DNA of 64,000 nucleotides, from NCBI GenBank assembly GCA_034723395.1, contig JAYEOW010000024.1, forward strand, positions 22,205-86,204, given 5' to 3'. Below are positions 18,189 through 64,000 of this stretch, in pieces (position 1 is the first letter of the stretch; each line of letters opens with the position of its first letter). This DNA comes from Candidatus Margulisiibacteriota bacterium. Its GTDB lineage: Bacteria; Margulisbacteria; WOR-1; O2-12-FULL-45-9. Below the pieces are notes generated by a model, which worked only from the letters and a program-made list of their open reading frames with translations, did no database searches and had not been told where the DNA came from. Both the position numbers and the translations under genes were made by a program.

Positions 18189-18191
18189 CGG

Positions 18192-25894: not shown

Positions 25895-25895
25895 A

Positions 25896-27050: not shown

Positions 27051-27051
27051 C

Positions 27052-27894: not shown

Positions 27895-28805
27895 CTTATT
27901 TTCTCCTTTCCTAACATCGTTTTTAACGTTATCTTCGCGACCTTAATATATAAAGAAATAAACAATGGATCTGCCTTAAATGACTTCCATAAATATTTCA
28001 AAAACGGTTTTCTTAAACAAAATCGGTAATATGCCCAGTTATAATAAATGTTCGCTTTCGTTCTTCTAAAACGAAACCAGTCGGAGAGTTTTCTCTTCTC
28101 AAGCCGGCAATAATGGTCATCTATAATATTAATTACGCTTTGGAACATCTCTTCCCTGCTTGAATTCGTAAAATTATTTTCATGCAGCGTATAGCCGCCC
28201 AGTATCTCCGGAATAAAATGGAAAAGATGGCCGGCCTTTGCCGCCCTTAACCACAGGTCATAATCTTCACAAAGATAGGTTAACTTGCTTTCAGAGAAAT
28301 ACCCTACGTCCTCCATTATCTTTTTCTTAAAAGTTACGGCCGGAGTTGACAATAAATTTCCGGAATAAAGCAGCGCACGGTGCATATCTTTCGCTCCAGG
28401 GCCATTTTTCCGTATCCCAGATATCTCTCCATCTTTATGGTCGTGTAGATCGTGGCTGATGATTGCTATGTCCGGATGGTTCTTAAATGCTTGTATCGTT
28501 ATTTCAAGCTTATCTGAATACCAGATATCATCCTGATCGAGGATCGCAATAACCTCACCGGATGCCTGCCTGACCCCGCTATTTCTAGCCCCACCCAATC
28601 CTTTATTTTTCTGTTCAATATAAACAAAGTCCGTCTCTTGATGCTTCTCCATATATTCATTAACTACTTCTCCAACATTATCCGGCGATTCATCGTTCAC
28701 CAGAATGATCTCGTAATCTTTGTAGGTTTGCGCCAAAACACTATCGAGCGTTCGCTCAATCAGTTTTGCCCCGTTATATAAAGGTATGATCACTGATACT
28801 TTCAT
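27891..28805 (-). CDS. GT2 glycosyltransferase
   Basis: VSVIIPLYN, VND.S.D, ARN.G, LDQDD.W, EDYDLWLR. Start at ATG 28805, overlapping the upstream stop. Confidence 0.92.
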   Translation of the reverse strand: MKVSVIIPLYNGAKLIERTLDSVLAQTYKDYEIILVNDESPDNVGEVVNEYMEKHQETDFVYIEQKNKGLGGARNSGVRQASGEVIAILDQDDIWYSDKLEITIQAFKNHPDIAIISHDLHDHKDGEISGIRKNGPGAKDMHRALLYSGNLLSTPAVTFKKKIMEDVGYFSESKLTYLCEDYDLWLRAAKAGHLFHFIPEILGGYTLHENNFTNSSREEMFQSVINIIDDHYCRLEKRKLSDWFRFRRTKANIYYNWAYYRFCLRKPFLKYLWKSFKADPLFISLYIKVAKITLKTMLGKEKIR

Positions 28806-30601
28806 AAAAATACCGCTAAACTTTCTTCGTTGACCGGGGAGAAGCATTGGGCAATTAATTCTCTCCCCTTTTCACGCAGTTTTATCTCCTTTGCTTGATC
28901 GATGCTTTTTATTTTCTCAATCTCTGCCGCGATCTCTTCCGTAGTTCGGGCGGTAAACTGAAAATCGTCTTTGGAGAACCAGTCCATCGGATCGAGGCTG
29001 ATATCAAGATCGCTACGCACTCTTATCACAGGCACCCCCCACGCCAAAGCATCAAATATCGTAGCAGAAGCAGTAGCTATCAACATTGTCGCATTTGGCA
29101 AAACGTCGCTCATTCCTCCGCCAACAAGCTCATATTCATCTGTTTTTAAACCGGCTAAATTTATTATTTCACTAAGATCTTCTTTGGCCATCATTGGATG
29201 CGGTTTGAGCACCAGCTTCATATGCTTGGTATTCCTAAGTGCTGACCAGCTCTTTGAAAGAAGTTCCAGCGCGTTCGGTTTCGCTAGCGGAAGGGTGATT
29301 AAAACAGTATTTTGGGGCCTATCCCCTCTCCCATATTGTCTTATTAGATATTGGAAACGCAGAGCCGGGCCATCGACTAAACACTCTGAGGAAAATCCTT
29401 CTTTAGATAAAATCTCTCTAAAATAACTGCCGGAGCAAATAATCTTATTCGGTGTCGGCAGCACACCCGCCTCATTTTTTGAGGCATAACAGCTTAGAAG
29501 TAATGGAAACAGAGAGGCGTGCTGAAAACCTAGTATAGTAGCATCCGGCAAGTATTTTTCTGCTCCTAGAAGAATCGGCTTCTCAGGAAACATATTTTCA
29601 AAAGTGATAATGATACGTTCGATTTTAACTCCCTTTTCGCTCAGCCTTTCCATTAAATAGTAATGCATCACAACCTCAAAAGCCGATCCGCCGGCAAATG
29701 CAGTTCTTCTCGCCTCTTCCCGGTAGATCAGCCCAAGTTCGTGCCCTTGAAAAACGAAAGATCCCTTGAAAAATGTCAGCGACCGAAACATAACATATAG
29801 TCCCTTAAAATAATCGGTAATTCGATAATAATCGTCCGCAATAATAAAGTTTTCCTTTGCCTGCCTGAGCCAAGCAAAAGTCTCTCTGATCGACCGCCTT
29901 AAATTGTAAAATATCGGGAGAATAGCGACCGTTTCCCCTTTTCCCCTTAATTCACCAGCTAAATTAGCAAAATAACTATCCTTAAATTCCCCGTTTTGGC
30001 TTAAATGTTTATCTCCAATCCAGGTCCTTAGAATAGTTAACGGTTTATTATCACTAATTGATGGTTTTCGCGCCCATAACTTTCTGGTAAAAGCTTGTTT
30101 AAGCGACAAAAAGAATCGTGCTGCCGCACGCAAATATGATTTAAAAGCATTAGTCTTATATAGTTTTATATTTTTATATCCATTGAATAGATCAGACCTT
30201 GATATGGTCTCTAATACCGCCGTGCTCTCCGAAAAGATGCAGACATTTTTCCCGGAAAGTTCCTTTTTTAACCGATTCACAACTTCAAGATAACAAATAT
30301 AAAGATACACCGGGCTGTCCATCACATTTTTTTCCGCTATCTTTGAGCACCACCATGCCAATGAGTTAAAGCAGACGCTCAACTCTCCGACGTAATCCAA
30401 ATAAGACCGCCGCAGGTCATTGGCCGCATCTTCTAACAACGAACCAATTTCTACATAGTGCCAATTAGCGGGAGCTTGGTTTTTTAATTCTAAAAGCCGC
30501 TTATAATCCCTTCCTAAAAAAACCCAGTAATGGTGTTCACTGAATTCCCTTTTAGCGGGAAAACCTTTGTCAGCCTGAATTAATCTAATCGTATTAGGCA
30601 T
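28802..30601 (-). CDS. uncharacterised glycan biosynthesis protein, candidate CMP-ulosonate transferase
   Basis: FEN..PEK, GFQH, G..RF, LKPHP, SAT.FDA...G.PV give a GT-B-like C-terminal pattern; directly after kdsB. Confidence 0.5.
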   Translation of the reverse strand: MPNTIRLIQADKGFPAKREFSEHHYWVFLGRDYKRLLELKNQAPANWHYVEIGSLLEDAANDLRRSYLDYVGELSVCFNSLAWWCSKIAEKNVMDSPVYLYICYLEVVNRLKKELSGKNVCIFSESTAVLETISRSDLFNGYKNIKLYKTNAFKSYLRAAARFFLSLKQAFTRKLWARKPSISDNKPLTILRTWIGDKHLSQNGEFKDSYFANLAGELRGKGETVAILPIFYNLRRSIRETFAWLRQAKENFIIADDYYRITDYFKGLYVMFRSLTFFKGSFVFQGHELGLIYREEARRTAFAGGSAFEVVMHYYLMERLSEKGVKIERIIITFENMFPEKPILLGAEKYLPDATILGFQHASLFPLLLSCYASKNEAGVLPTPNKIICSGSYFREILSKEGFSSECLVDGPALRFQYLIRQYGRGDRPQNTVLITLPLAKPNALELLSKSWSALRNTKHMKLVLKPHPMMAKEDLSEIINLAGLKTDEYELVGGGMSDVLPNATMLIATASATIFDALAWGVPVIRVRSDLDISLDPMDWFSKDDFQFTARTTEEIAAEIEKIKSIDQAKEIKLREKGRELIAQCFSPVNEESLAVFL

Positions 30602-31331
30602 ATAAGCTTTTGGTTTTATCCTTTTTCATTAGATCTACAACTATTTCCAGATCGGCCGGTGTATCTACGCTGATCTTCGCTCCCTCAATCTTAACCGCTT
30701 TCATCTTCACCCCGTGCTCTAAAACCCGTAAATATTCGTTATACTCGATAGTTTCTAAGGGAGTCGGTTCCCATGAGGTATATTTGAGCAAAAACTCCTT
30801 ACGAAACGGAACAATAAAGCACATTTTTAACAGTCCATTAACCGGTGTCCGCGCATCACTAGGCAGATCGGTTCTTGAACAGTAAAGAATATTTCCATTC
30901 AGGTCTAATACTGCTTTTATATCTGAATGACTATTCTTACCAGCATACGGAGTAACCCCAACCGAAATCTGGATATTTTGATCTTTCTTTAGTGGTGCAA
31001 CGATTTGATTAATATGTTCTGGATCAACTAACGGTTCATCTCCCTGGATATTTACTACGATGTCGCAATCGACTTTCTGGGACGCTTCGGCTAAACGGTC
31101 GGACCCGGTTTTATGATGATTTCCAGTCATGATTACTTTTATTCCATGCTTTTCACCGGCACTTTTAATTTTTTCATTATCGGTCACCAAATAAACCTCA
31201 TCTAAAGCCTCCGCTAACAAAGAACGCTTACAAGTGTGGATCACCATCGGCAATCCTTCGATCTCAATCAATGCTTTGCCGGGTAAACGGCTCGACTCTA
31301 ATCTTGCCGGAACCATTCCTACAGTTTTCAT
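30594..31331 (-). CDS. kdsB: 3-deoxy-manno-octulosonate cytidylyltransferase family
   Basis: PARL.SSRLPGK.L..I.G.PM, TGSDR.AE, VNIQGDEP, LE.IE..E.LR.LE.G, SVDTP.DL. Confidence 0.88.
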   Translation of the reverse strand: MKTVGMVPARLESSRLPGKALIEIEGLPMVIHTCKRSLLAEALDEVYLVTDNEKIKSAGEKHGIKVIMTGNHHKTGSDRLAEASQKVDCDIVVNIQGDEPLVDPEHINQIVAPLKKDQNIQISVGVTPYAGKNSHSDIKAVLDLNGNILYCSRTDLPSDARTPVNGLLKMCFIVPFRKEFLLKYTSWEPTPLETIEYNEYLRVLEHGVKMKAVKIEGAKISVDTPADLEIVVDLMKKDKTKSLYA

Positions 31332-31332
31332 C

Positions 31333-32100
31333 TTAAGATTTAAACTCCTTGATCGTATGCTTAAAGCTGCGGCACAATTCAGTCGCATCCAAAGAGTATG
31401 TTATAAATTGGATCCCGATCTCTTTGAACCAGCGAAGCTGTTCCATGCTTGCGGTAAAAGCACCGGCCGCCTTGTTCTTGGTTCTAACCTTTTTTACACA
31501 TTCCTCAACATATTCCTTTAGTTTTGGGCTCTCCAGCTCTCCAGGGATCCCCAACGCTTGGGATAGATCACATAAACCGAAATAGACCACGTCAATATTT
31601 TCGTCATCAATGATCGCGTCGATATTTTTAACTCCCTGCTCTCCCTCTACAATTAAAATAGTCATCGTTTCATCATTTTCTTTTCTAGTATGCTCATCGG
31701 TCTTTTCGGGAGCATATCCAGCGGCGCGAGTAAACGGAGAGAATCCTCTCTCCCCGATTGGCGCATACTTCATCCCCTTGATCGCCAGTTTTCTCTGCTC
31801 AACCGATTCGATATGCGGAACCACAATCCCGTGTGCTCCGATATCCAATCCGCGCAGTATTTCCGCTTCATCATTGCGGGGAACGCGAATAATCGGAGTG
31901 CAATCTTCCAATTCCGCGGCACGCACCATATCTTCGGCAGTCTCATAGCTGATAGGACCATGCTCCATATCAATGACCACAAAATCCAATCCGGCGGCTC
32001 CTAAAACATTAACTGCTGAAGCGGACGGGAGGATACACCAGGTTCCCAGCACGGATTCCCCTTCTTTTAACATCCGCTTTAATTTATTTAGTTTTCTCAT
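31333..32100 (-). CDS. HpcH/HpaI-family class II pyruvate aldolase
   Basis: GLDFVVIDMEHG, RVP, LDIGAHGIVVP, Y.P.G.RG, G..DLSQ.LG.PG. Confidence 0.88.
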   Translation of the reverse strand: MRKLNKLKRMLKEGESVLGTWCILPSASAVNVLGAAGLDFVVIDMEHGPISYETAEDMVRAAELEDCTPIIRVPRNDEAEILRGLDIGAHGIVVPHIESVEQRKLAIKGMKYAPIGERGFSPFTRAAGYAPEKTDEHTRKENDETMTILIVEGEQGVKNIDAIIDDENIDVVYFGLCDLSQALGIPGELESPKLKEYVEECVKKVRTKNKAAGAFTASMEQLRWFKEIGIQFITYSLDATELCRSFKHTIKEFKS

Positions 32101-32111
32101 CGTTTACTCCT

Positions 32112-32867
32112 TTAGACCACCTTTATTTGTGATACATCATCAATCACGTAGTTAGTCAGATTTTGTAGTTGTTCTCTCGGCGTTATCCCGGAACAGACCG
32201 CGATACTAGCTTTAACTTTGGCGTTATTCCCCATTTTAATATCAGTTTCAGCATCACCCACCATGACCATCCGATTCTTAGCAATTTTAAGCTCTTGCGA
32301 GATCAAATCGATCATATCCGGAGCAGGTTTTGAGAGCTCAACTCCATCTGCTCCGATTACAAATGACATCTTTTCGGAAAGCCCAAGAAAATCCATCGAA
32401 AGTTTAGCCCTTTCTGTTTTATCAGTCGTTGCGATCGCCGTTTTACATCCTTTGGCATGTAAAGTATCGATCAAGTCGTATGTCCCATCGATTACTTTTA
32501 TAAGGGTGTCCAGCATATCTCTTGATATTTCATCAACCTTACTAAATGCTTCAAGACAAGCCGTTCGCCCGTCTTTTATCCCAAACTGATGCAGATAATC
32601 GATTGCCGCCTGCATAACCACCTCGCGCTTTTTAATTCCGACCGGTCCTTCCGAACGCAGTTTTTTGTTCTCTAAATCTACCCCCATCTCAAACATCATC
32701 TTTTGCCTATGATCCCCGTCCAAATTGAACTTTTCGCAGATCAACTCTGCCCTTTTGCCAATCATTTGCGACCAGTAATGGTAGAGATCAATCAGTGTAC
32801 CGTCGCGATCGAAGATCACCAGATCAATATCTTTTATTACCTGACCATTAACTTTAATATCAGCCAC
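32112..32867 (-). CDS. HAD-superfamily phosphatase
   Basis: IFDRDGTLID, KP.PD, MVGD..TDI.MG. Confidence 0.88.
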   Translation of the reverse strand: MADIKVNGQVIKDIDLVIFDRDGTLIDLYHYWSQMIGKRAELICEKFNLDGDHRQKMMFEMGVDLENKKLRSEGPVGIKKREVVMQAAIDYLHQFGIKDGRTACLEAFSKVDEISRDMLDTLIKVIDGTYDLIDTLHAKGCKTAIATTDKTERAKLSMDFLGLSEKMSFVIGADGVELSKPAPDMIDLISQELKIAKNRMVMVGDAETDIKMGNNAKVKASIAVCSGITPREQLQNLTNYVIDDVSQIKVV

Positions 32868-33864
32868 GGATGTCCTCCAGGTTTTCTTTCACTAATTTCT
32901 CCGCAACCGTAACTGCTTTACCGATCAGATCGAGATCGTTCTCAAAATTATCCTTATTAATATAATCTGCGACTAATTTACGCGCAAAAGTACCGATCGA
33001 AACCCCATTAATGTCTACGCCGCACAACTTTGCCAGATTTCCGGTTTTACTATTCGTTCCTCCCGAAGCTAGGATCATCACTGGCACATTGCTTTTCCGC
33101 ACGATATCCGAAATAGCGATCGTTTGCAGAGTTGTATTATAATCGTCTTTACCACCGCTCATCGGTACTCCATCCGCTTGCACGATCATTCGCTCACCCG
33201 TGATCTCATACGCGGCTTTGATCCTCCTGATCACTTCGGTATCGGACAACTGCGATCGGTCAAGACACATGCTTATATAATTATCAGCAAGAAACTTGTT
33301 AACTAGTTTCCAGTCTGCCATTACCGATTCCTCATCGGGGATAATTGCATGGAGTTCAAATGTTTCCGTTCCGTTCGCCAGGCAATCGGGCAGGATCTTT
33401 TTCAATTCATTCCTCTTATCGAAGAAACTAACCGCATTAGCCGGACATACGCGGCCGCATTCGCCGCAGCCGATACAGCGTTTCTCGATTACTTGAAAAT
33501 CATTGGTAATCGCCTTTTGCAGGCAATATTCAAGACAGCTACCGCAAGAGGAACAAATATCAGCGTCTATTTTTGCCTTCCGGATATGCGGATCCCCCCG
33601 CATCCCGATACTTACATTAATAAATGGCCTGGTTTTAAGCTTTTTACCAAGCTTAGGCGCTAATTCAAAAGCTTTATTAACTCCCAGCACCGAATTCTTA
33701 ACCACATCTACGTTTGCTGATACATCGATCCCTAGTGCTCCTGCGAGTGTATATACCAGAGAGAGCTTTCGTACTTCGTCAGCATCCTCGTTACCCGCGC
33801 CGCAAACGATCTTAAAATACTCTCGATCCCTCAATATCTGCCTTAATTCTTCAAATCTGCTCAT
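32860..33864 (-). CDS. LdpA-like iron-sulfur protein (two 4Fe-4S)
   Basis: FKIVCGA...L.LVYTLAGA..IDV.A, DPH.RKA, CxxCxxCxxxC and CIGCGECGRVCP, QADG.PMSG, GGTN match the cyanobacterial LdpA pattern. Confidence 0.75.
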   Translation of the reverse strand: MSRFEELRQILRDREYFKIVCGAGNEDADEVRKLSLVYTLAGALGIDVSANVDVVKNSVLGVNKAFELAPKLGKKLKTRPFINVSIGMRGDPHIRKAKIDADICSSCGSCLEYCLQKAITNDFQVIEKRCIGCGECGRVCPANAVSFFDKRNELKKILPDCLANGTETFELHAIIPDEESVMADWKLVNKFLADNYISMCLDRSQLSDTEVIRRIKAAYEITGERMIVQADGVPMSGGKDDYNTTLQTIAISDIVRKSNVPVMILASGGTNSKTGNLAKLCGVDINGVSIGTFARKLVADYINKDNFENDLDLIGKAVTVAEKLVKENLEDIRG

Positions 33865-35579
33865 ATGTAATTCTTCATCCCCTTATAAAATTCCTTGTAA
33901 TTCGTTGGGGTTAGGATATGCAACCCTTCTCCTCCACGGTTTTCCAAATATTGATTGATCTCTTTTAAATAGCGAAGATTCCAGTTATGCTTTTCTTTAA
34001 TATCTTCAAGTTTTTCCGCCTCGTTGGCCTCATTATAGAAATGGTGAATCCCATCTTTTGACGTCCCCATATATCCATCCATCCCCGCGATAAATACTCT
34101 TTCTCCGCCCATTACTAACGCTAAACCAGCCAAAAGAACAGAAACCGTCCTGCAGCTTGATGAAATAATCCCATTTTCGATATTAAATGGATTTTCTAAA
34201 GAATCTTCATAATAAATAATTTCGTAATCACGGTTAACATATTCTCTGATCATCTCTTCTGAAATATGCTGACCAATTAACAATTTTGATTCAGGACTTA
34301 CTTTATCGACATAATCTGTAAATCGCCTTTTATTAGTAAAAGCATGATAATGTGGAACGAATAATCCCCCGAGATAATTTCCTCCCAAGACTATCGGATC
34401 GTACTTCTTTATAAATGCTAAGATCTTATCCTGGTTTTCTTTTAAGCTGGGACCGTTGGCCAGGACTAAAAAGTCCCGTCTTTTATAGCGATTAATATAC
34501 GGAACATCAATTTTTTTATCGTTTACATTTTCATCTTTTTTGACACCCGATATTGTTTTAACTTTCTTACCAAACAACCCTTTTCTTAAAACATCTTCAA
34601 TCAGCTCTTTATTGAATCCTACCGGATTGTTCATTTTAATGACTTCAAATATATTCCAGATATCTTCGATATCGTACTCTTTGCGGTCAACCAGGTTTTT
34701 AGCGTATGTCGGATGGCAGCCATAAGTGCCGGAAAGCATGTACGGGAGGTTATATCCCCAGTTAAACTTTTTGTGCAGATCGGTATAATAATGATCGATG
34801 ATATTTAGAACCGGTATAACGTTATAGCGATCCGGATCTTGATGGTGCAGATAAGCGAGCATGATCTCGGTCGGGAGGTTCCCCGCACCACGCCCCATCC
34901 CAAAGATCGAACCATCAACTATCCTCGCCCCGGCATCGATCGCAGCTAAAGAATTAGCAAAGGCCATCTGCAGGTTATTATGCGGATGAAAGCCCCATTT
35001 AATATGTTTTATTTCTAATAACGGCTTATAGAAATCGGCAAGCTGATTAGGGAACATCGATCCGTACGAATCGGCAACGTAAGCATAATCCAGTGGAAGA
35101 TCTTTAAGGATCGACAAGAGCTCCTGCTTTTCTTTATCTGAATAAGCAGAAAAGCCCATCAGATTGACTGAGGTTTTTAATCCAAGCTCTTTTATTTTTG
35201 CCGTATCAATTAAAGCATCCCTTAATTTATCTTTATGAAATGCAACTCTGATCAGATCAACCGGGGTCTCCTGGTATTGTTTAAGGTCCTCCAGATCGTA
35301 TTTGCCATGGTCGACCATTAAAGCAACCTTTGAACCGTCAATTCCTTTGGTTGCCGCTAGAATCTCATCGGCAGAGCTAAAGCGGTAAGCTCCGAATTTA
35401 TCTTTATTAAAATACTTTTCTGTGCCGTGATAACCCAGCTCAACATAGTCCACTCCCGCTTTGGAGAGCGCCCGGTAAGTCTCGCGGACCAGTTTCTTAT
35501 CAAAATCCCAATTATTCACATATCCGCCGTCACGGATCGTGCAATCGAGGATTTCCAGATTATGCGGCTTCTTTTGCAT
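33861..35579 (-). CDS. DRE-TIM (HMGL/DmpG-like) aldolase fused to a Maf/DUF115-like domain
   Basis: LDCTIRDGGY.N.W.F, DSYGS, GFH.HNN.Q.AFAN, GMGRGAGN.PTE; C-terminal LVLANGPSL and IAGMDGY. Confidence 0.75.
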   Translation of the reverse strand: MQKKPHNLEILDCTIRDGGYVNNWDFDKKLVRETYRALSKAGVDYVELGYHGTEKYFNKDKFGAYRFSSADEILAATKGIDGSKVALMVDHGKYDLEDLKQYQETPVDLIRVAFHKDKLRDALIDTAKIKELGLKTSVNLMGFSAYSDKEKQELLSILKDLPLDYAYVADSYGSMFPNQLADFYKPLLEIKHIKWGFHPHNNLQMAFANSLAAIDAGARIVDGSIFGMGRGAGNLPTEIMLAYLHHQDPDRYNVIPVLNIIDHYYTDLHKKFNWGYNLPYMLSGTYGCHPTYAKNLVDRKEYDIEDIWNIFEVIKMNNPVGFNKELIEDVLRKGLFGKKVKTISGVKKDENVNDKKIDVPYINRYKRRDFLVLANGPSLKENQDKILAFIKKYDPIVLGGNYLGGLFVPHYHAFTNKRRFTDYVDKVSPESKLLIGQHISEEMIREYVNRDYEIIYYEDSLENPFNIENGIISSSCRTVSVLLAGLALVMGGERVFIAGMDGYMGTSKDGIHHFYNEANEAEKLEDIKEKHNWNLRYLKEINQYLENRGGEGLHILTPTNYKEFYKGMKNYI

Positions 35580-37401: not shown

Positions 37402-37405
37402 TATC

Positions 37406-43366: not shown

Positions 43367-43376
43367 CAAATACTCC

Positions 43377-44834: not shown

Positions 44835-44845
44835 TATTTATCCTC

Positions 44846-46100: not shown

Positions 46101-46103
46101 TTT

Positions 46104-49205: not shown

Positions 49206-49206
49206 C

Positions 49207-51284: not shown

Positions 51285-51285
51285 T

Positions 51286-57091: not shown

Positions 57092-58263
57092 TTACCTATC
57101 TTTTCCCGGTTTAGATATATTCTTTCCAACGCCGAACATACTTTTTTAACATCATCAATAGATATATGTGAGAAGAGAGGCAGGCTTAACGCATTATCGG
57201 CAACGCTAATCGTATGCTTTAGGTCATTCTGCACCTGATAATTTGCAAATGCCTTCTGCTTATGTACCGGTGGATAAAAATATTTCTTTACTACGATATT
57301 CTCTTTTAAAAGCGCGTCAGATAATTTATCCCTGCTCATTCCAAATTTATCCTGATCAACCAGTATTGAAAAATCTTTAAAACTGCTTTGATCATTCCGG
57401 TCGATCTTTTGAAACCCGATCCCCGGCAGATTCGATAATAGCTTTTTATACAATCTCACCGCTCGATTCCTCTTTTTTACGTTCTTATCAAGGTGTTTGA
57501 GGCTTTCGATGCCAAGCAGTGCGTTAAATTCGCTCATCCGCGCGTTAAAACCGGAAAATTCACAGTCGTAGTTACCTGCATCACCGTAGTTCCTGCCCAC
57601 TCTGATGCTTGCGGCAAGCTCATCATTGTTGGTCGCAACAATCCCACCCTCTCCCGCAGTTAAAAGTTTCGTAGGACTCAAGCTGAAAGATTCAGCATCG
57701 CCAAATCCTCCTATTGCTTTTCCATTCCGCTTTGCGCCAAAACCGTGGGCAGCGTCAAACATCAATCTGAGATCATTTTCCTCTGCAATTATTTGAAGCT
57801 CTTCAACCTTAGCTGGGTTTCCAAAAATATGGACCCCAATGATTGCCGACGTGTCAGGAGTTATTGCTTTTTTAATCGCTTCTGGATCAATATTGTAGGT
57901 AACTGGTTCACAATCAACAAAAACCGGTTTTAATCCGTTCCAAACCACTGCATGTGCTGTAGCATGAAAAGTAAAACTGGGTAAAATAACTTCCCCTTTT
58001 AGTCCCATTATTTTCATAAGAAGCATTAGGCCGCTTGTACACGAATTGGTAGCTACCGCGTTCTTTACTCCCAAATATTCAGCAACGTTTTTCTCAAACT
58101 CCCTTACATTCTCCGCATTAGTGATCATTCCGCTCTTTAACACCTGCTGATACCTCTTTTTCAATCCGCTAATTGGCGGCATCGTAGGTTTAGTGATCGG
58201 GATCGGGGTATCAAATACCGGTTCTCCTCCTAAAATTGCTGGTACATTTTTATTGTTTTCCAT
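57088..58263 (-). CDS. DegT/DnrJ-family sugar aminotransferase (VioA-like)
   Basis: PSFTF.AT, FDAAH.FG, FSL.PTK...GEGG, N.RMSE. Confidence 0.88.
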   Translation of the reverse strand: MENNKNVPAILGGEPVFDTPIPITKPTMPPISGLKKRYQQVLKSGMITNAENVREFEKNVAEYLGVKNAVATNSCTSGLMLLMKIMGLKGEVILPSFTFHATAHAVVWNGLKPVFVDCEPVTYNIDPEAIKKAITPDTSAIIGVHIFGNPAKVEELQIIAEENDLRLMFDAAHGFGAKRNGKAIGGFGDAESFSLSPTKLLTAGEGGIVATNNDELAASIRVGRNYGDAGNYDCEFSGFNARMSEFNALLGIESLKHLDKNVKKRNRAVRLYKKLLSNLPGIGFQKIDRNDQSSFKDFSILVDQDKFGMSRDKLSDALLKENIVVKKYFYPPVHKQKAFANYQVQNDLKHTISVADNALSLPLFSHISIDDVKKVCSALERIYLNREKIGK

Positions 58264-59624
58264 TAGTAACACTCCACGTTATAATATTTTGGATCATCTA
58301 ACTTATCGACTTCTTTATTTATAATCGCATCCTTTATTCTTAAAACCGATCGACCGATCTCCATTCCAACATTAAAACCCAACAAACTCTCGATCTTGCT
58401 AAAAGAGACCACATAATTCCGCACATCCATAGTCTCTCCTTCTACGATCAAATCGGCGGTGGGGATATGCTCTTTTACCGTTTTTCCGATCTGGATTATC
58501 TGGTAGTTTTGTTTACTCGAACCTACATTAAATATTTGACCTTTGATCTTACCTAATGGTGCTTCCAAACATTTAATATATGCCTCCGCTGCATCATCCA
58601 CGTGCAGTAATGGGCGCCACTGTTTTCCCCCTCCATGTACGGAAATGGTTTTATCAATAATCGCATTTTTTGTCATGGTATTAACCACCAGGTCAAAACG
58701 CATCCTTTGGGAAAATCCGTACAGGGTACTCATCCTTAAGATAGTTGGAGAAAAGTTCTCATCCTCGAGAGAAAGAATCCCTTCTTCTGACTGGATCTTT
58801 GATCTGGCATAGAGAGAAACCGGATTTAAAGGGGCGTTCTCATCCAATTCGCTATCGCCGTCCATCTGTCCATAGACACTGCAGGTTGAGGCATAGATGA
58901 ATCTATTGATCTGGTGGTATTTGCAGGCTTCGGCCAGCGCTTTATTGGCTAAATAATTTGTTTCAATGGTCGTCTCCGGCCCCTTGTTACAAGCCGGATC
59001 ACCAACTACTGCCGCTAAATTAATCACCGCGTCAATATCGGCCAACGCTCTTACCAAAGTTGAAATATTCCGCATATCCCCCTTGATGAGTTCAAATTTT
59101 TTATTCTCCAGAAGATCTTCAATCGGTTCGATACCAAACATAAGAACATCCAGCACTTTTACCCCATAACCCTTAGCCAACAACTTTCTCACCAAAATAG
59201 ATCCCAGATATCCAGCCCCCCCTACAACCAACACACTTCTGGTAACGCTGTGGTTTTCAACATCTTTCTTAAGCAACTCCGAAAACATACTCAATTTTAA
59301 CGGTCGGTCATCATTATCCAATACAAGAATATAACGGCTATCGGGCATTAACTGCTGCAATTTTCCGATCCGCTCACTAACCGCCACCATGTCGCTTAGT
59401 TCATTTTTTCTTAATAGGATAGGATTGGGATTAACAATATCCTTGACCGGTTGTTTAATATCTTTTCCCTTTAAAATCGCTTTCCTGATTTCGCTGTCAC
59501 TAACTACCCCGCTTAATTTATTGGCTTCATCCACTATGTAGGCTACCCTTAAGCCCGAATGATCGATCAGCCTCATTACTTCTTTGATCGGAGAATTTTC
59601 AGATATCAATACTTTATTTAGCAT
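58263..59624 (-). CDS. CBS-like domain fused to an NAD-dependent sugar epimerase/dehydrogenase
   Basis: N-terminal IVD....L.GVVSD..IR.AIL.G; GGAGYLGS, ASTCSVYG, YARSK, RMRFDLVVN, QWRP..HV.D. Confidence 0.82.
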   Translation of the reverse strand: MLNKVLISENSPIKEVMRLIDHSGLRVAYIVDEANKLSGVVSDSEIRKAILKGKDIKQPVKDIVNPNPILLRKNELSDMVAVSERIGKLQQLMPDSRYILVLDNDDRPLKLSMFSELLKKDVENHSVTRSVLVVGGAGYLGSILVRKLLAKGYGVKVLDVLMFGIEPIEDLLENKKFELIKGDMRNISTLVRALADIDAVINLAAVVGDPACNKGPETTIETNYLANKALAEACKYHQINRFIYASTCSVYGQMDGDSELDENAPLNPVSLYARSKIQSEEGILSLEDENFSPTILRMSTLYGFSQRMRFDLVVNTMTKNAIIDKTISVHGGGKQWRPLLHVDDAAEAYIKCLEAPLGKIKGQIFNVGSSKQNYQIIQIGKTVKEHIPTADLIVEGETMDVRNYVVSFSKIESLLGFNVGMEIGRSVLRIKDAIINKEVDKLDDPKYYNVECY

Positions 59625-60249
59625 TCTTTATCACCTTTGCCGGCACACCAACTGCCGTTACCCCATCGGCCAAATCATTTAAAAGCACCGCTCCAGCTCC
59701 AAGCATAACTTCTTTGCCAATATTAATATTCTGGATGACCGATGCTCCAGTTCCCACGTAAGATAACCTTCCAACCCTAACCGTTCCCGCCAAAACCGCA
59801 CCCGGCCAGATCTGGCAAAAAGCACCAAGCTGGCAATCGTGATCGACTGAGGCTCGAGTGTTAATTACTGCGCCCGCATCGATAACGACACCGGGATTAA
59901 CGATCGCACCGGGCATGATCGTTACTCCATCCGCGACCTGAACATCCCGTGAAACGATCGCTTTTGGGTGAATTGCTGAAACTACTTTGATCCCTTTAGC
60001 TTTTGCTTTTTTATAAATACGTTCGCGTATCTTATTATTGCCAATCCCCAAAGCGATCAGTGTCGAATCTTTGTTCCCGGTTAATTGATCAAGATTACCG
60101 AATATCTCAAATGCGCCAACTTTTTGCCCTTTTCTTTCGGCATTGTCATCCAGGAATCCTGCAACTTCGCGGCCAGATTCTAATAAAATATCCAGCACAA
60201 CCTTACCGTGCCCACCGGATCCATAAATATATATTTTTTCTTTACTCAT
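59614..60249 (-). CDS. NeuD/PglD-family hexapeptide acetyltransferase
   Basis: G.GGHGKV, IG.N..R, IHP.A, INT.A.VDHDC, GVPA. Confidence 0.9.
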   Translation of the reverse strand: MSKEKIYIYGSGGHGKVVLDILLESGREVAGFLDDNAERKGQKVGAFEIFGNLDQLTGNKDSTLIALGIGNNKIRERIYKKAKAKGIKVVSAIHPKAIVSRDVQVADGVTIMPGAIVNPGVVIDAGAVINTRASVDHDCQLGAFCQIWPGAVLAGTVRVGRLSYVGTGASVIQNINIGKEVMLGAGAVLLNDLADGVTAVGVPAKVIKNAK

Positions 60250-61396
60250 AACTTAGCTGTTTCTGCAGCATATCCTTATTAATTTCTACTTCACTTAACA
60301 CTTTAGCTATTTTTTTGCCCGCTTTCCCTTTTCCATACGGATTTTTACATTTAACAACTCTTTTTCTATATCTTTTGTCGGAAAACGCTTTTTTAATAGC
60401 CCGCTTTATCTCTTTCTCATCATGGCCGACGTCAATCACATTTACGCTTCGCTCCCGGCAATCCTGGCGGATCCCGATATTAATGACCGGCAGCTTAAAG
60501 GAAGAAGATTCGATGATCCCGCTGCTTGAATTACCGATCAAAAGCTCCGCATGTTTTAAAAGACTTAAATAATGCTTATGGGGGAAATTTTTATGAATCC
60601 TGATAAACGGAAGCCCTTTTAGCGCCTCGATCTCCCGGATAATCACCCTCCCCCCCGCATCAGAATTCGGGTAGATAACAAGGGTCGTCATTTTTAGCCC
60701 TTTAATTACCCGTAAAGTTTTTTGTATTTGGGAGCGGGCATCTTCGATCTGGGTAGTGACCGAATGCTGCAGCAACACAATATATGGTTCAGCTGAATTT
60801 ATATTTAATACTTTTAACAATTCTTTTTTTGATAAATGTTTTTCATTTAATATACTGTCCAAGCCCGGGGCGCCGGTTAAATGAACATTTTTCGGATTCT
60901 CTCCCATCTTCAATATCCTCTGTTTGCTTGTTTTTGTAGCCGCAAAATGGATATGGGCAAGCTTAGTGATCGCATGCCGCGCCGATTCGTCCAGCCCCGC
61001 TTTACTGATATCCCCGCCATGGATGTGGGCAACCGGGATATTCAGATAAGCGCTGGCAATCGCCCCCGCCAAAGCTTCTGTCCTATCACCTAATATCAAA
61101 CAAATATCCGGCCTCTTTTTCTCAAAAGCCTTGGTTATTTCTACAATCCCCCGTCCGATCGCTTTAGCCATCGATCCAGCCTTATCTTTTTTAGGATGCA
61201 TCTTTACTTTGTATGCGATCTTAAAGCCATCTTTTCTAATAAGATCTACCGTTTTACCGAACTCATTGGAAAAATGCATGCCAGTAACCATCAACAACAG
61301 TTCCAGGTCTTTATGCTCGTTGATCGCCCGCATTACCGGCCTTAAAAGACCGTATTCTGCCCTGGTTCCGCTAATTACACATACTTTTCTTCTCAT
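60242..61396 (-). CDS. neuC: hydrolysing NDP-HexNAc 2-epimerase (NeuC/LegG)
   Basis: GTRAEYG, TGMH, LGDR.E, HIHGG, DE..RHAITKL.H.HF, GNSSSGI.E, IG.RQ..R. Confidence 0.9.
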   Translation of the reverse strand: MRRKVCVISGTRAEYGLLRPVMRAINEHKDLELLLMVTGMHFSNEFGKTVDLIRKDGFKIAYKVKMHPKKDKAGSMAKAIGRGIVEITKAFEKKRPDICLILGDRTEALAGAIASAYLNIPVAHIHGGDISKAGLDESARHAITKLAHIHFAATKTSKQRILKMGENPKNVHLTGAPGLDSILNEKHLSKKELLKVLNINSAEPYIVLLQHSVTTQIEDARSQIQKTLRVIKGLKMTTLVIYPNSDAGGRVIIREIEALKGLPFIRIHKNFPHKHYLSLLKHAELLIGNSSSGIIESSSFKLPVINIGIRQDCRERSVNVIDVGHDEKEIKRAIKKAFSDKRYRKRVVKCKNPYGKGKAGKKIAKVLSEVEINKDMLQKQLSYE

Positions 61397-62151
61397 TGTT
61401 CAATATCCTGCAGTTCTGCTTTCCAGATCACCAATTTTTTATTACCTTTTTTTATATAAGCCCCGCGATATGGCTTGGATAAACTTCTGATCTTGTTATA
61501 AATTGCTTCTAAATCCTCATTCTCAAGATCGATTTCATTATTTTTTAGCGATGGTTTATCAAATAGAATTGCTTGCTCATGATTTTGCGGAATTCTAGGG
61601 GCTTTCCCTTTAATAACTAATGGCAGATATTGCTTGACCAATTTTTTACCGTTTTTTATCAGATATTTATAAACATCCGGAGTGTGGTCGCTTTTTTTGA
61701 TCCGATATTCTTCCTGGCCAATAATATCCCCGTCATCCAATCCCTCAGACAAATAGAACATAGTCAATCCGGACTTTTTTCTCCCTTTCTGGATTGTATT
61801 AATTATCGGAGCGGGACCTCTGCCATACGGCAATAAAGTCGGATGAAAGCCGATCACTCCCTGAGTAGGGACATTAAGAATAGCTTTATCAATTAGCTGG
61901 CGCCAGCCGCACATTATAATTAAATCGGGATCCAGGCTCTTGATTAAATCTTTTTCTTGATTAATCTGTTCGATCTCAAATGTTTTGATGCCTAACTCTT
62001 TCCATTTTTTGTTTTTAACGCCATCATACATAACAGTCTTTGCTTTTTCACTTAAGGTTATGACCGCAGCAATCTCAACGTCTTCGATCTTTAACGCTTC
62101 CTTAAGCAGTTCATAACCCAATTTATTAGCCGACAGCCAGATGATTTTCAT
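61393..62151 (-). CDS. sugar N-formyltransferase
   Basis: GW.QL, GFHPTLLP..RG.AP, D.GDI, IR.L..PY.GA. Confidence 0.85.
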   Translation of the reverse strand: MKIIWLSANKLGYELLKEALKIEDVEIAAVITLSEKAKTVMYDGVKNKKWKELGIKTFEIEQINQEKDLIKSLDPDLIIMCGWRQLIDKAILNVPTQGVIGFHPTLLPYGRGPAPIINTIQKGRKKSGLTMFYLSEGLDDGDIIGQEEYRIKKSDHTPDVYKYLIKNGKKLVKQYLPLVIKGKAPRIPQNHEQAILFDKPSLKNNEIDLENEDLEAIYNKIRSLSKPYRGAYIKKGNKKLVIWKAELQDIEQ

Positions 62152-62796
62152 TTAGTTTTGAATATCCTTTATCAGCATAAACGCTTCCGCATATTCCACA
62201 CAGATCTCGGAACCGCGCTTCTTTGCCAACACTCTAATTCCTTCTCCGCTCCTTGGATGCGGCCATTTTTTAACTTCTGATTTATAGATCTCAAATGCTT
62301 TGACCTTATTGTCAATTTGATCTTTAATTTCGTTCCAAACATTTGGCAGAAAAGGTTTGTTGTTCCACTCTGTTTCAGATACTGTTTCATAAGATAATAG
62401 CTTGATCCGCTTAGGCGGTCGGGTTGCAACCAGACAAGCACGGAAGATAATGGTGTGGTCGTAATTTAGGTCGTTTTCGAAATGGGTGTAAATGACGTCC
62501 GGGTTAACCTCATCAACCACACCAGTTATTTTCTTATTTAACTCACCGTGTGGAATCGTATTCAATTTAGTGGTCATCAGGTCGAGATTATATCGTTTTT
62601 TAATTCCGACCAGTTTATCAACTTCCGCCTGTTCTTTTATCTTTGTCTCCATATACTCTTTTGACCATTGCGGCTCAAAGGCTTTAGTCACGATACAAAC
62701 AAATACTTCGTCTCCCTTTGAAGCATGCCTTAATAATGTCCCGCCGACTCCTAATATTTCATCATCCGGATGGGCTGCCACAACTAATATTTTCAT
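62152..62796 (-). CDS. PIG-L/LmbE-family N-deacetylase
   Basis: AAHPDDE.LG.GG, YTH...D...DH, YET.SETEW, PHPRS, A..RG, AEAF. Confidence 0.9.
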   Translation of the reverse strand: MKILVVAAHPDDEILGVGGTLLRHASKGDEVFVCIVTKAFEPQWSKEYMETKIKEQAEVDKLVGIKKRYNLDLMTTKLNTIPHGELNKKITGVVDEVNPDVIYTHFENDLNYDHTIIFRACLVATRPPKRIKLLSYETVSETEWNNKPFLPNVWNEIKDQIDNKVKAFEIYKSEVKKWPHPRSGEGIRVLAKKRGSEICVEYAEAFMLIKDIQN

Positions 62797-63806
62797 CTTT
62801 TCACCTTATCCCAGGTTAATACCTGGTCTTTTTTTATATTTTTGTTAGCCAATTTCCCAATTATTTTATTCATAAATCTTGGCTCAATTCCACTCCCCGG
62901 CCGTTTTACTCCTATTTTCCTCAATACGATCTTTTCTCCTCGTGCAATATCAGACAAAGCAATTAGGCTCTTGCGGATAACTCTACTTACCCCTTTTTCC
63001 GCAATCCGGGGGCGTTTTATCCCGTCACCTAATGATTTTTCAACATTCCTGATCGCTCGAACCATTGCCGCTAATTCAACTGGTGATAATGATGCTTTAT
63101 GATCCGGCCCCGCCATTTTTTTATCCAACGTAAAATGCTTTTCGATCACTGCGGCTCCCATCGCGACCGCGGCTACCGAGACTTCTATCCCCTCAGTATG
63201 ATCTGAGTACCCAACTGGAACATTAAACTTGGTTTTTAATGTCAGCATTGCTTTTAAATTAACGTCATCATATTTTGTCGGATAATTCGAGGTGCAATGG
63301 AGTAAAGTTAACTTTCTATTGCCTGCAGCATATATAGCCTGTAGCGCACGCTTAACTTCATCAATTGTTGACATCCCAGTGGACAGAATAATCGGTTTTT
63401 TATATTTCGCAATTTTAGTCAATAAAGGAATGTTCGTTATCTCCCCGGAGCTGATCTTGAACAAGGGAAGCTTTAATCCGTTTAAAAAATCAGCGCTTTG
63501 TAGATCGAACGGGGTTGAGAGGAACATTATCTTCTTTTTCCTGCAATATTTTGAAAGGTCATCGAATTCTTCTCTTGAAAGCTCTAGCTCCTTGAGCATG
63601 GCAAGCTGTGACTTTCGGGGAACGGTCTTTTTTTGATAGGCGGCTTTGGGAGCGCTGGCGGTTACCAGTTCTTCGGAATTAAAGGTCTGGAACTTAATTG
63701 CGTCCGCTCCCGCAGATTTTGCGGCATCCACCATCTTTTTAGCCAGCTTTAAACTGCCGTTATGGTTAACTCCCGCTTCTGCGATAATAAATACTTTTTT
63801 ACCCAT
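62793..63806 (-). CDS. neuB: N-acylneuraminate/legionaminate synthase (NeuB/LegI)
   Basis: IIAEAGVNHNG, KFQTF, FLSTPFD, KI.SGEITN, HCT..YP, GYSDHT.G, GPDHKASL. Confidence 0.92.
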   Translation of the reverse strand: MGKKVFIIAEAGVNHNGSLKLAKKMVDAAKSAGADAIKFQTFNSEELVTASAPKAAYQKKTVPRKSQLAMLKELELSREEFDDLSKYCRKKKIMFLSTPFDLQSADFLNGLKLPLFKISSGEITNIPLLTKIAKYKKPIILSTGMSTIDEVKRALQAIYAAGNRKLTLLHCTSNYPTKYDDVNLKAMLTLKTKFNVPVGYSDHTEGIEVSVAAVAMGAAVIEKHFTLDKKMAGPDHKASLSPVELAAMVRAIRNVEKSLGDGIKRPRIAEKGVSRVIRKSLIALSDIARGEKIVLRKIGVKRPGSGIEPRFMNKIIGKLANKNIKKDQVLTWDKVKR

Positions 63807-64000
63807 GATTCCTCTTTAAAACCTGCTCCGCCATCCAAAATTCAAATTCATCATCGATTTCAACATTCTGGTCTTTCGATATTTCAAATCTCTCTGCTCT
63901 ATCCCCGTGCATCTTTCCATTGCGTATTTGATCAGCTTTTATAACATAAACATTTCCATCGTCATAAAAGAATCCCTCTAACTCCTGCCTCCGCTGTGTA
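63799..64000 (-). CDS. acylneuraminate cytidylyltransferase, C-terminal part (cut by window edge)
   Basis: My translation (not in the ORF track): TQRRQELEGFFYDDGNVYVIK...QNVEIDDEFEFWMAEQVLKRNHG*. RRQ.L, G..Y and EID...F..AE are NeuA C-terminal motifs. Confidence 0.8.
   Translation of the reverse strand, partial: TQRRQELEGFFYDDGNVYVIKADQIRNGKMHGDRAERFEISKDQNVEIDDEFEFWMAEQVLKRNHG

Follow-up and report, generated by a model that had tools for sequence, protein, structure and literature searches.

Four predicted CMP-ulosonate modules in one surface-glycan locus of a Candidatus Margulisiibacteriota bacterium

The window analyzed here, a stretch of 64,000 nucleotides of a Candidatus Margulisiibacteriota bacterium (GCA_034723395.1), contains the middle section of a single co-directional locus for surface glycans, about 60 kb long, in a small-genome diderm, and it carries four consecutive gene blocks (modules 1 to 4) with predicted roles in the synthesis of cytidine 5′-monophosphate (CMP)-activated 3-deoxy-2-ulosonic acids. 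It corresponds to positions 22205-86204 of contig JAYEOW010000024.1 (hereafter C24), which belongs to a 1.68-Mb, 55-contig metagenome-assembled genome (MAG) that is 97% complete. We propose that the modules would act as four separate supply lines of CMP-ulosonates that feed one polysaccharide or glycoconjugate, each with its own condensing enzyme(s), cytidylyltransferase and unrelated transferase candidate. Modules 1 (55964 to beyond 64000) and 2 (47153-55963) are most likely variants of the known routes to legionaminic (Leg) and pseudaminic (Pse) acid, and modules 3 (37406-47156) and 4 (28802-35585) conserved cassettes whose products, like every substrate, product and transfer step assigned below, are predicted from the sequence. 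It is probable that at least three distinct CMP-ulosonates are made from separate modules; whether all four are distinct is close to an even call, which we would place slightly on the doubtful side.

Families were assigned with Pfam and NCBIfam scans, and scores are given in bits against the model cut-offs. The hidden Markov model E-values of the named elements lay far beyond chance, and the scans found the four CMP-activating enzymes (the first of them only after the contig join described below), the NeuB-family domains and the two pyruvate-type aldolases where the initial annotation, made from the sequence alone, had placed them. The array contains three full NeuB synthases, one weak NeuB-like fused domain, four CTP_transf_3 genes and the two aldolases, so that of the four NeuB-family domains that had been claimed three stand as synthases, and the fourth (in 51286-53064) appears too weak to count as one. 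Pairwise identity of the full NeuBs was only 35-38%, and in a 12-row tree they fell into three classes, which bore out their separate standing; the mutual identity of the cytidylyltransferases was 22-37% or undetectable, and the four transferase candidates, one per module, were unrelated to each other by BLASTP. All 48 open reading frames, from 12707 to 63806, lie on the minus strand (as do all genes of the window described below), the 47 intergenic gaps range from -56 to +11 nt and no interrupted frame was seen in the 48 genes. Decay of the blocks, one of the ways in which the proposal could have failed, is thus not apparent, and the single operon that had been proposed stands as to direction and packing, with the difference that the array extends well beyond it, to 12707 and onto a second contig.

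The upstream extension was established by a contig join. C24 continues 161 nt past the window end, and C24:86207-86332 is identical to positions 1-126 of the reverse-complemented contig C42 (an exact 126-nt overlap). The last frame of C24 and the N-terminal PseF/NeuA-like fragment at the C42 end share 42 identical residues, so that the array runs upstream onto C42 and the first cytidylyltransferase is completed; the NeuA predicted at the window end is therefore real, and only the join revealed it. Beyond the overlap the final 33 nt of C24 (86333-86365) diverge from C42, probably as an assembly-graph branch or a strain variant at the array start. The C42 part of the array comprises, in order, Wza-like and Wzz-like export genes, a UDP-glucose dehydrogenase, a Gfo/Idh/MocA oxidoreductase, an acetyltransferase, two DegT aminotransferases and an iron-containing alcohol dehydrogenase. 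At the other end the array is closed by a WecA-like initiating transferase at 12707, with groEL just beyond.

A second assembler, run on the same sample, gave contigs that cover 28600-48500 at an even depth of 16-17; in one of them modules 3 and 2 are joined across their border, and in another module 4 is complete. This argues against a chimera of strains, within the limit that the same sample is not an independent sampling. The second assembly breaks inside the ABC exporter gene, where the module 4 contig stops at 36524 and the next begins at 36607, and a short inverted repeat or a minor variant may lie behind this break. One contig end of this assembly folds back on 36535-36564, and a low-depth contig links 36360 to 46283 via 26 other letters. 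The sole sequencing run that holds this DNA is a DNA run of a brine metagenome, which may be the source sample, no RNA run being listed, and the nearest named relatives of one protein belong to Candidatus Saganbacteria, WOR-1 and Margulisiibacteriota (62-72% identity). Along the array the GC content lies between 0.36 and 0.45; it drops to 0.36 at 52000-56000, in the PFTS-like gene and the SpsF-like fusion of module 2, and is 0.40-0.45 elsewhere, and the dip fits a mosaic origin.

Modules 1 and 2 and their tailoring genes

Module 1 is of the Leg/neuraminic type. The NeuA/PseF-like cytidylyltransferase has its C-terminus at 63802-64000 and its N-terminus on C42; the 66-aa fragment 63802-63999 alone gave no family match in Pfam or NCBIfam, and the N-terminal 138 aa on C42, scored by themselves, gave 114 bits against the PseF model. 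Next come a NeuB/LegI-type nonulosonate synthase (62793-63806) with NeuB and SAF domains (Pfam NeuB 1e-103), which passes TIGR03569 (480.7 bits, cut-off 399.65), and two putative tailoring genes, a PIG-L deacetylase (62152-62796; PF02585 82.1 bits) and a formyltransferase-fold protein with N and C domains (61393-62151; PF00551 82.8, PF02911 29.4 bits). A NeuC/LegG-type hydrolysing 2-epimerase (60242-61396; TIGR03568 440.1 bits, cut-off 235.9) and a NeuD/PglD-type N-acetyltransferase (59614-60249; TIGR03570 223.7 bits, cut-off 160.8) come next. A LegB-like role is predicted for the CBS and short-chain dehydrogenase/reductase (SDR) protein at 58263-59624 (PF01370 172.9, CBS 36.1 bits), which scored 95.5 bits on the LegB model, below the cut-off of 475, and a LegC-like role for the DegT aminotransferase at 57088-58272 (PF01041 362.5 bits), with 198.5 bits on the LegC model, below the cut-off of 420. 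Dehydratase, aminotransferase, PglD-type acetyltransferase, NeuC-type epimerase, NeuB-type synthase and NeuA-like activator would constitute a legionaminic/neuraminic-type route, in which the N-acyl group is probably swapped or removed by the PIG-L and formyltransferase-fold enzymes. The transferase candidate of this block is a 375-aa protein (55964-57091) that matched no Pfam or NCBIfam family. BLASTP detected no relatives of it in the loci fetched from metagenomes and genomes (L-numbers below), and a 37%-identical relative lies at the equivalent place in the phylum genome G145 (G-numbers denote genomes of the phylum).

Module 2 is of the Pse type. It begins with a PseC aminotransferase (54830-55963; TIGR03588 524.8 bits, cut-off 423.5) and a 590-aa PFTS-motif-like protein (53065-54837; TIGR04417 37.7 bits, cut-off 100), the GT-B-type transferase candidate of this block, which has relatives in L033 and L018. 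In Atlas look-ups the neighbours of this protein were Glyphos_transf, Capsule_synth or Epimerase_2, with a 'sialyltransferase family' cluster at TM 0.54; for the module 1 candidate only unnamed clusters were retrieved, one of them with A-2_8-polyST on 33% of the cluster (score 0.93), and we take both look-ups as weak leads. The activation candidate (51286-53064) is a fusion protein with a weak, partial NeuB domain at residues 53-247 (61.8 bits) and an SpsF-like CTP_transf_3 domain at residues 340-531 (65.3 bits); it gave no match to a PseF model at E ≤ 1e-5. It is comparable to the SpsE/SpsF-type genes of Bacillus subtilis (PMC7439481) in having a NeuB/SpsE-like barrel and an SpsF-like domain; here the parts are fused and the barrel has diverged far from the full NeuBs (22-30% identity), and it may or may not act as a synthase, since a complete PseI lies two genes away. 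The fusion family comprises at least 965 proteins, which databases name SpsF/sialic acid synthase; the top 120 are full-length and 50-58% identical, and one variant carries an inserted GNAT domain. PseG UDP-sugar hydrolase (50253-51284; TIGR03590 206.5 bits, cut-off 153.55) and PseI synthase (49207-50256; TIGR03586 473.7 bits, cut-off 340.25) follow, and this PseI clades with the PseI-like genes of L033, L121 and L022 (support 99/99). The module ends with two formyltransferase-fold paralogues (48570-49205 and 47871-48569; PF00551 partial, PF21553 77.1 bits) and a putative tailoring deacetylase of the PIG-L family (47153-47878; PF02585 94.2 bits). The paralogous pair was considered as a split pseudogene, and this was rejected, since both cover the same profile region and they are separate genes in L033. 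Both paralogues accompany PseG and PseI in L033, and PseI in L121 as well; in L033, an Elusimicrobia MAG, the order is PseG, formyltransferase-like b, PIG-L, formyltransferase-like a and PseI.

The only PseB-class match in the genome is 16003-17007, which lies between two equivalogs (FnlA 411.8 bits, cut-off 730; PseB 336.2 bits, cut-off 407.75) and is followed by a WbcJ-like reductase and WecB. Since this gene is 30 kb downstream in the array, block 2 is without its own PseB and is not self-contained, and the dehydratase may be shared by an L-sugar route and the Pse route. PseC, PseG, PseI and the SpsF-like fusion would provide a pseudaminic-type route, whose 4-keto sugar would probably come from the 16003-17007 dehydratase and in which PIG-L and the two formyltransferase-fold paralogues probably stand in place of PseH-type acetylation. 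The three formyltransferase-fold proteins of modules 1 and 2 keep an H-x-S/T-x-L-P-x-G-R/K-G motif (HPTLLPYGRG in 61393-62151) and are without the Asn two residues before the His, which we take to be a member of the catalytic triad of this fold. The accessible part of the SugarBase preprint describes a Leg-type cluster with a deacetylase and a formyltransferase in Candidatus Kuenenia stuttgartiensis, where the pair lies between leg-type genes and neuB, and reports that this organism makes CMP-nonulosonates with a free amine and with a formylated amine (10.64898/2026.04.20.719630). This cluster, likened here by description only, is the closest precedent for the tailoring pair; the window differs from it in having the pair twice, in modules 1 and 2, and in the missing Asn.

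Modules 3 and 4 as recurrent cassettes

Module 3 carries a NeuB synthase of a third class, NeuB3 (46104-47156; Pfam NeuB 8.5e-83, 277.9 bits), which is below both equivalog cut-offs (NeuB 316.6 bits against 399.65; PseI 250.6 bits against 340.25), as are its relatives in L108 and L121. In a sequence search of the PDB, NeuB, PseI and SpsE structures scored about equally; in the NeuB tree NeuB3 clades with the NeuBs of L108, L140 and L121 (99/98), apart from the PseI clade and from NeuB1. Its neighbours are a KdsC/YrbI-family sugar-acid phosphate phosphatase (45609-46100; TIGR01670 109.3 bits, cut-off 106.95), an SDR oxidoreductase (44846-45616; PF13561 143.8 bits) with 53-64%-identical relatives in block-3-like loci, an aldehyde dehydrogenase (43377-44834; PF00171 527 bits; 472 bits on the alpha-ketoglutaric semialdehyde dehydrogenase model, cut-off 770) and a transketolase-like thiamine diphosphate (ThDP) enzyme (41586-43369) split into an N part (42527-43369) and a C part (41586-42527), which is a single fused gene of 630-640 aa in L108 and L121. 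These are followed by an enolase-superfamily acid-sugar dehydratase (40414-41589; MR_MLE_C 142 bits), a PanE/ApbA-family 2-oxoacid reductase (39525-40451; TIGR00745 182.3 bits, cut-off 141.35), the block 3 cytidylyltransferase (38773-39528; PF02348 72.6 bits; PseF model 119 bits, cut-off 205.7) and the transferase candidate, a Glyphos_transf-like protein (37406-38776; PF04464 36.3 bits) that matched no PDB sequence at E ≤ 1 and has 27%-identical relatives in three module-3-like loci (L101, L104 and L105). An ABC exporter of the MsbA/PglK/HepA type (35560-37401; NF045513 428 bits, cut-off 725) separates modules 3 and 4.

Among the other 145 phylum genomes the dehydratase had no match at E ≤ 1e-40. 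A metagenome scan with this protein found 430 relatives, of which 80 loci were kept, many on short contigs. Block-3-like loci contain dehydratase relatives at 58-69% identity and cytidylyltransferase relatives at 50-66%. The set in L108 consists of a NeuB3-like gene (52%), SDR, aldehyde dehydrogenase, PanE-like reductase, cytidylyltransferase (64%), dehydratase (65%) and fused transketolase; L121 adds a KdsC-like phosphatase to this set, and L140, L104, L105, L101 and L106 have parts of it. Over the 80 loci PanE was counted in 12, the transketolase N part and the cytidylyltransferase in 10 each, SDR and aldehyde dehydrogenase in 7 each, NeuB3 in 3 and KdsC in 1. Module 3 is thus a portable cassette that recurs as a set in metagenomes.

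In Bacteroides thetaiotaomicron the route to 2-keto-3-deoxynonulosonic acid (Kdn) or N-acetylneuraminic acid (Neu5Ac) 9-phosphate condenses phosphoenolpyruvate (PEP) with a sugar 6-phosphate and uses a YrbI/KdsC-family phosphatase and a CMP synthetase. Module 3 resembles it at the family level, in its NeuB-family synthase, its KdsC/YrbI phosphatase that passes the subfamily cut-off and its cytidylyltransferase; it differs in that the phosphatase scored 97.3 bits on the KDN-9-P phosphatase model, below the cut-off of 180, in that synthase and activator are below equivalog cut-offs, and in five conserved redox, ThDP and dehydratase enzymes that have no place in the known route. We propose that NeuB3 condenses PEP with what is probably a non-amino sugar phosphate, that the KdsC-type phosphatase would free the acid, and that the dedicated cytidylyltransferase would activate it. 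Either the supply of an unusual acceptor or the oxidation of the side chain would fall to the SDR, the aldehyde dehydrogenase, the transketolase-like enzyme, the enolase-type dehydratase and the PanE-type reductase. The interpretation that we favour is a condensation of the Kdn type, with an unusual non-amino sugar phosphate as the acceptor, or else an oxidation of the side chain at a later stage.

Module 4 begins with a fusion (33861-35585) of an HMGL/DmpG-like pyruvate-aldolase barrel (PF00682 95.4 bits) to a domain of the Maf/sialyltransferase fold, whose PF01973 (DUF115/MptE-like) score of 34.3 bits is just under the cut-off of 34.6. Residues R18, D19, H200 and H202 of the aldolase half are invariant in 15 of 15 aligned sequences, and presumably match the catalytic Arg and the metal ligands of DmpG. 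When an AlphaFold model of residues 300-574 (pLDDT, the predicted local distance difference test, 79.7) was compared with 48,161 solved chains, the best match was a Maf glycosyltransferase (5mu5; Z 15.0, root-mean-square deviation 3.2 over 189 residues), followed by MptE, a pterin pyrophosphokinase of archaea (Z 12.4), by SteA and the Campylobacter jejuni sialyltransferase Cst-I (GT42; Z 12.1 each) and by animal sialyltransferases (GT29; Z 7.7-9.8). Maf enzymes that transfer Neu5Ac and 3-deoxy-D-manno-oct-2-ulosonic acid (Kdo) have been reported, as far as the accessible part of the source goes (10.1101/2020.06.03.131540). The window domain appears to share the Maf fold in its model; it differs in being fused to an aldolase barrel and in having no evident flagellin context, and is a candidate transferase only. 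A stand-alone aldolase of about 320 aa, which shares roughly 40% identity with the aldolase half, makes up almost all of the matches in the 51 other phylum genomes that scored at E ≤ 1e-60, and it matches a structural-genomics 'putative aldolase' (PDB 3dxi, E 3e-64).

The genes that follow are an LdpA-like protein with two [4Fe-4S] motifs (32860-33864; NF045992 148.8 bits, cut-off 450), of which only the ferredoxin part was matched by sequence in the PDB, a HAD-IA phosphatase (32112-32867; PF00702 94.7 bits), an HpcH/HpaI class II pyruvate aldolase (31333-32100; PF03328 90.9 bits; PDB 4b5s E 8.7e-36; HpaI model 160.4 bits, cut-off 368.8) and a KdsB-like cytidylyltransferase (30594-31388) that passes both TIGR00466 (158.5 bits, cut-off 155.2) and NF003952 (227.7 bits, cut-off 193) and matches KdsB/KpsU in the PDB (1gq9, E 1.6e-38). 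The last gene is the transferase candidate, a TIGR04326-like protein (28802-30601) whose model (pLDDT 87.7) has a GT-B fold in residues 184-599 (Z 13-15 to many GT4-type transferases) and whose relatives follow a KdsB-like gene in 13 cassette loci. The RmlD-like gene at 27052-27894 follows the cassette also in L020, L031 and G145, and it may or may not belong to module 4, as the genome has RmlC.

More than 1,786 relatives of the aldolase fusion were found and, in species-representative genomes, at least 597 loci, of which 80 were kept. Among these the cassette recurs in the order aldolase fusion, LdpA-like, HAD, HpcH, KdsB-like and TIGR04326-like, or the same with HpcH moved, in MAGs labelled Scalindua, Deltaproteobacteria (4), Bdellovibrionales, Omnitrophota (3), Elusimicrobia, Methanobacteriota and 'archaeon', with KdsB-like relatives at 55-76% identity. 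A CTP_transf_3 gene lies within 5 kb in 21 of the 36 loci with the two-domain fusion (8 within 300 nt), against 6 of the 44 aldolase-only hits, and an ABC exporter homologue lies upstream of the fusion in L018, L022, L025, L035 and L038. Full-length orthologues of the fusion occur in 4 of the other 145 phylum genomes. Module 4 is thus a second portable cassette, found in several bacterial phyla and in archaeal MAGs. A variant that consists, in order, of LdpA-like, HAD, aldolase fusion and HpcH, and in which a KdsB-like gene was not detected, was seen in L039-L042, L048 and L055, from MAGs labelled Planctomycetales, Aquicultor, Gastranaerophilales, Elusimicrobiales, Microgenomates and Omnitrophota.

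The genome encodes LpxC. In this MAG, whose completeness of 97% leaves absence unproven, no Glycos_transf_N match (WaaA), no KpsF/KdsD match above cut-off and no KdsA was found; its only DAHP_synth_1 protein is a 3-deoxy-D-arabino-heptulosonate 7-phosphate (DAHP) synthase (513.8 bits against a cut-off of 335), which reached 135 bits on the model for KDO8P synthase (cut-off 314). The KdsB-like gene of the window is therefore without its canonical Kdo partners, and synthesis of Kdo from arabinose 5-phosphate was set aside for module 4, no KpsF/KdsD having been found in the genome. The module resembles the canonical Kdo route in its KdsB-family cytidylyltransferase and its phosphatase, and by analogy in a CMP-activated keto-deoxy acid; it differs in that the condensing candidates are pyruvate aldolases, that the phosphatase is HAD-IA and not KdsC-type, and that the cassette also occurs in archaeal MAGs. 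We propose that one or both pyruvate aldolases would assemble the keto-deoxy acid, with pyruvate and a (phospho)aldehyde as substrates, that the HAD enzyme would remove the phosphate, that the KdsB-like enzyme would make the CMP ester and that the Maf-like domain and/or the GT-B protein would transfer the activated acid. A pyruvate-aldolase route to a Kdo-like acid is favoured because the module has no PEP-dependent synthase, because only aldolases are present to condense, and because it ends with a KdsB-family enzyme and a transferase.

Relatives in the phylum and the rest of the locus

The phylum genome G145 has, in order, a NeuB1-like gene (54%), NeuC, CBS-SDR (63%), DegT (65%), the 375-aa protein (37%), PseC (64%), a PFTS-like gene (41%) and a further NeuB, then the full module 4 (HMGL fusion 68%, LdpA 71%, HAD 61%, HpcH 69%, KdsB 73%, GT-B 48%), an RmlD-like gene and a GT2 gene. 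Hence, modules 1, 2 and 4 are ordered as in the window and module 3 is absent. G089 combines modules 1 and 2 with a reduced form of module 4, and in G103 four NeuB-family matches lie within 85 kb, arranged differently. The recurrence of the modules and their order in relatives, like the gene content and intactness of the array, are observations; the consecutive blocks that the initial annotation had drawn behave as units, modules 3 and 4 recurring as sets in unrelated genomes and metagenomes and G145 keeping the order of 1, 2 and 4 without 3.

A NeuB-family match was present in 120 of the 146 phylum genomes, where one of the matches per genome is often a weak cross-match to DAHP synthase, and four or more in 17 of the 146 (counted from the table of matches). 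No figures for NeuB copy number were obtained from PMC8208679. Since genomes with several NeuBs are common in the phylum, the four-module count is less exceptional than had been claimed, and 'more than the one or two typical' was an overstatement. The window genome is near the top of the phylum range, not alone, and several ulosonate modules in one glycan locus are a habit of this lineage, with modules gained or lost as units.

Campylobacter jejuni displays Neu5Ac, Pse, Leg and Kdo, and has three neuB paralogues, with the Neu5Ac genes in the lipooligosaccharide (LOS) locus and the Pse and Leg genes in the flagellar glycosylation locus. It resembles the window genome in that NeuB paralogues of different classes occur in one genome with their own cytidylyltransferases and tailoring genes, and in Maf-type transferases. 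It differs in that its routes are split over loci that serve flagellin and LOS, whereas here four modules lie in one co-directional array with Wza/Wzy/WecA-type polysaccharide genes, and in that nothing there corresponds to two of the window modules. For strain 11168, the accessible part of the preprint cited above (10.64898/2026.04.20.719630) states that derivatives of Pse as well as of Leg are made.

The rest of the glycan locus (12707-28847) encodes GT2, RmlD, GT4s, a Wzy/O-antigen-ligase-like protein, DUF362, GNAT and polysaccharide deacetylase proteins, the FnlA/PseB-like dehydratase (16003-17007), the WbcJ-like reductase, WecB and the WecA-like transferase (12707-13750). Three of these proteins lie at 18192-20935, namely the polysaccharide deacetylase, which is of the XrtA type (253.4 bits against a cut-off of 276.2), the GNAT protein (320 aa) and the DUF362 protein. 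On C42 a second sugar cluster (L014:4153-16013) runs in the opposite direction to the main array, with a glucose-1-phosphate cytidylyltransferase, a CDP-glucose 4,6-dehydratase, an RfbH-type dehydrase, an SDR, an FkbM methyltransferase, a radical SAM protein, a 494-aa NeuB-like protein (132.8 bits, far below cut-off) and an acetolactate-synthase-like ThDP enzyme. From its genes it looks like a route to a branched 3,6-dideoxyhexose, and we take it to resemble the yersiniose genes; NeuB-like proteins of 505-520 aa occur in at least 8 phylum genomes.

Alternative explanations and implications

Several observations weigh against four complete and independent supply lines. The initial annotation had given each block condensation, tailoring and activation genes plus a transferase candidate; a cytidylyltransferase of its own and an unrelated transferase candidate hold for every block, but the Pse block has no PseB of its own, and no protein of 23266-64000 matches the PseH model at E ≤ 1e-5. 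The LegB-, LegC-, PseB- and PseF-type roles would be filled by proteins that score below the equivalog cut-offs, and the acyl donor of the formyltransferase-fold proteins is uncertain because the Asn is absent. Most dehydratase loci at 51-57% identity are without other module 3 genes and, as the loci were picked via the dehydratase, its linkage to these genes arises partly by selection, which does not explain the single clade of NeuB3-type genes. The loci with the variant cassette suggest that activation by a KdsB-like enzyme may not be obligatory in module 4.

The modules might then converge on one or two nonulosonic acids, with fewer sugars than modules; module 3 would only tailor or re-route Leg/Pse intermediates, e.g., by an acidic N-acyl or side-chain group, and NeuB3 and its cytidylyltransferase would be redundant isozymes. 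Block 2 already relies on an outside enzyme, the PseB-like 16003-17007, the module 3 SDR resembles the flagellin-modification protein PtmA (115.5 bits, cut-off 350), and L121 has PseI-type and formyltransferase-like genes beside the module 3 set. However, module 3 has neither an aminotransferase nor an acyltransferase/ligase and brings its own KdsC-type phosphatase, NeuB and cytidylyltransferase, no Pse or Leg genes accompany its set in the part of L108 that was fetched, and the NeuB3-type genes form a clade of their own that scores below both equivalogs, so that we consider convergence quite unlikely. It is also unlikely, to a somewhat lesser degree, that module 4 makes no glycan ulosonic acid, either because the KdsB-like enzyme activates another acid or phosphorylated compound, or because aldolases, Fe-S protein and MptE-like domain, of pyrophosphokinase fold, form a small-molecule or cofactor-like pathway that merely resides in glycan loci. 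The KdsB-like protein scores above the kdsB equivalog cut-off and aligns with CMP-Kdo synthetases of solved structure (E 1e-38), a GT-B protein follows it in 13 loci, the cassette lies inside glycan loci with GT2 genes and ABC exporters, and the best fold match of the fusion is to Maf, a nonulosonate transferase, with sialyltransferases next; the pathway version would account for the likeness of the same domain to MptE and SteA, for the loci without a KdsB-like gene and for the fact that a characterised example was not found in the open literature.

At the level of the assembly, alternative cassettes of a hypervariable glycan island from several strains might have been strung together, an explanation to which the variation in GC content, the divergent final 33 nt of C24 with their assembly-graph branch, the break of the second assembly at 36524-36607 and the uniqueness of module 3 within the phylum would lend themselves. 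We regard such a chimera as very improbable, since the contigs of the second assembler, even if not independent, tile the central part of the array at even depth, relatives hold several modules in equal order on single long contigs, and each junction is a tight or overlapping gene boundary.

We return to four supply lines and, within this proposal, we tentatively advance one further reading, that module 4 represents a widespread, undescribed pyruvate-aldolase route to a CMP-ulosonic acid and that, together with module 3, the genome would display four chemically different ulosonic acids, two of them new sugars. Here the KdsB-like enzyme would activate the acid and the dedicated GT-B protein would transfer it, the cassette being common to several bacterial phyla and archaea, and module 3 could give an oxidised or chain-altered nonulosonate. 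To our knowledge, every known ulosonic acid route uses a PEP-dependent synthase. A description of the module 3 or the module 4 cassette was not found in the open literature, most subscription journals being outside the search. CMP-activated C10 ulosonic acids, with genes unassigned, are reported for Magnetospirillum in the accessible part of the SugarBase preprint (10.64898/2026.04.20.719630); such chemistry exists, and we draw no link from it to the window genes.

Modules 3 (eight to ten genes) and 4 (six genes) are compact, portable gene sets that lend themselves to transfer to a laboratory host. Ulosonic acids, among them the sialic, legionaminic and pseudaminic acids and Kdo, shape the recognition of cells by phages, predators and hosts. 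A genome of 1.7 Mb spends about 60 kb on one glycan, and it belongs to a lineage that exchanges whole ulosonate modules.

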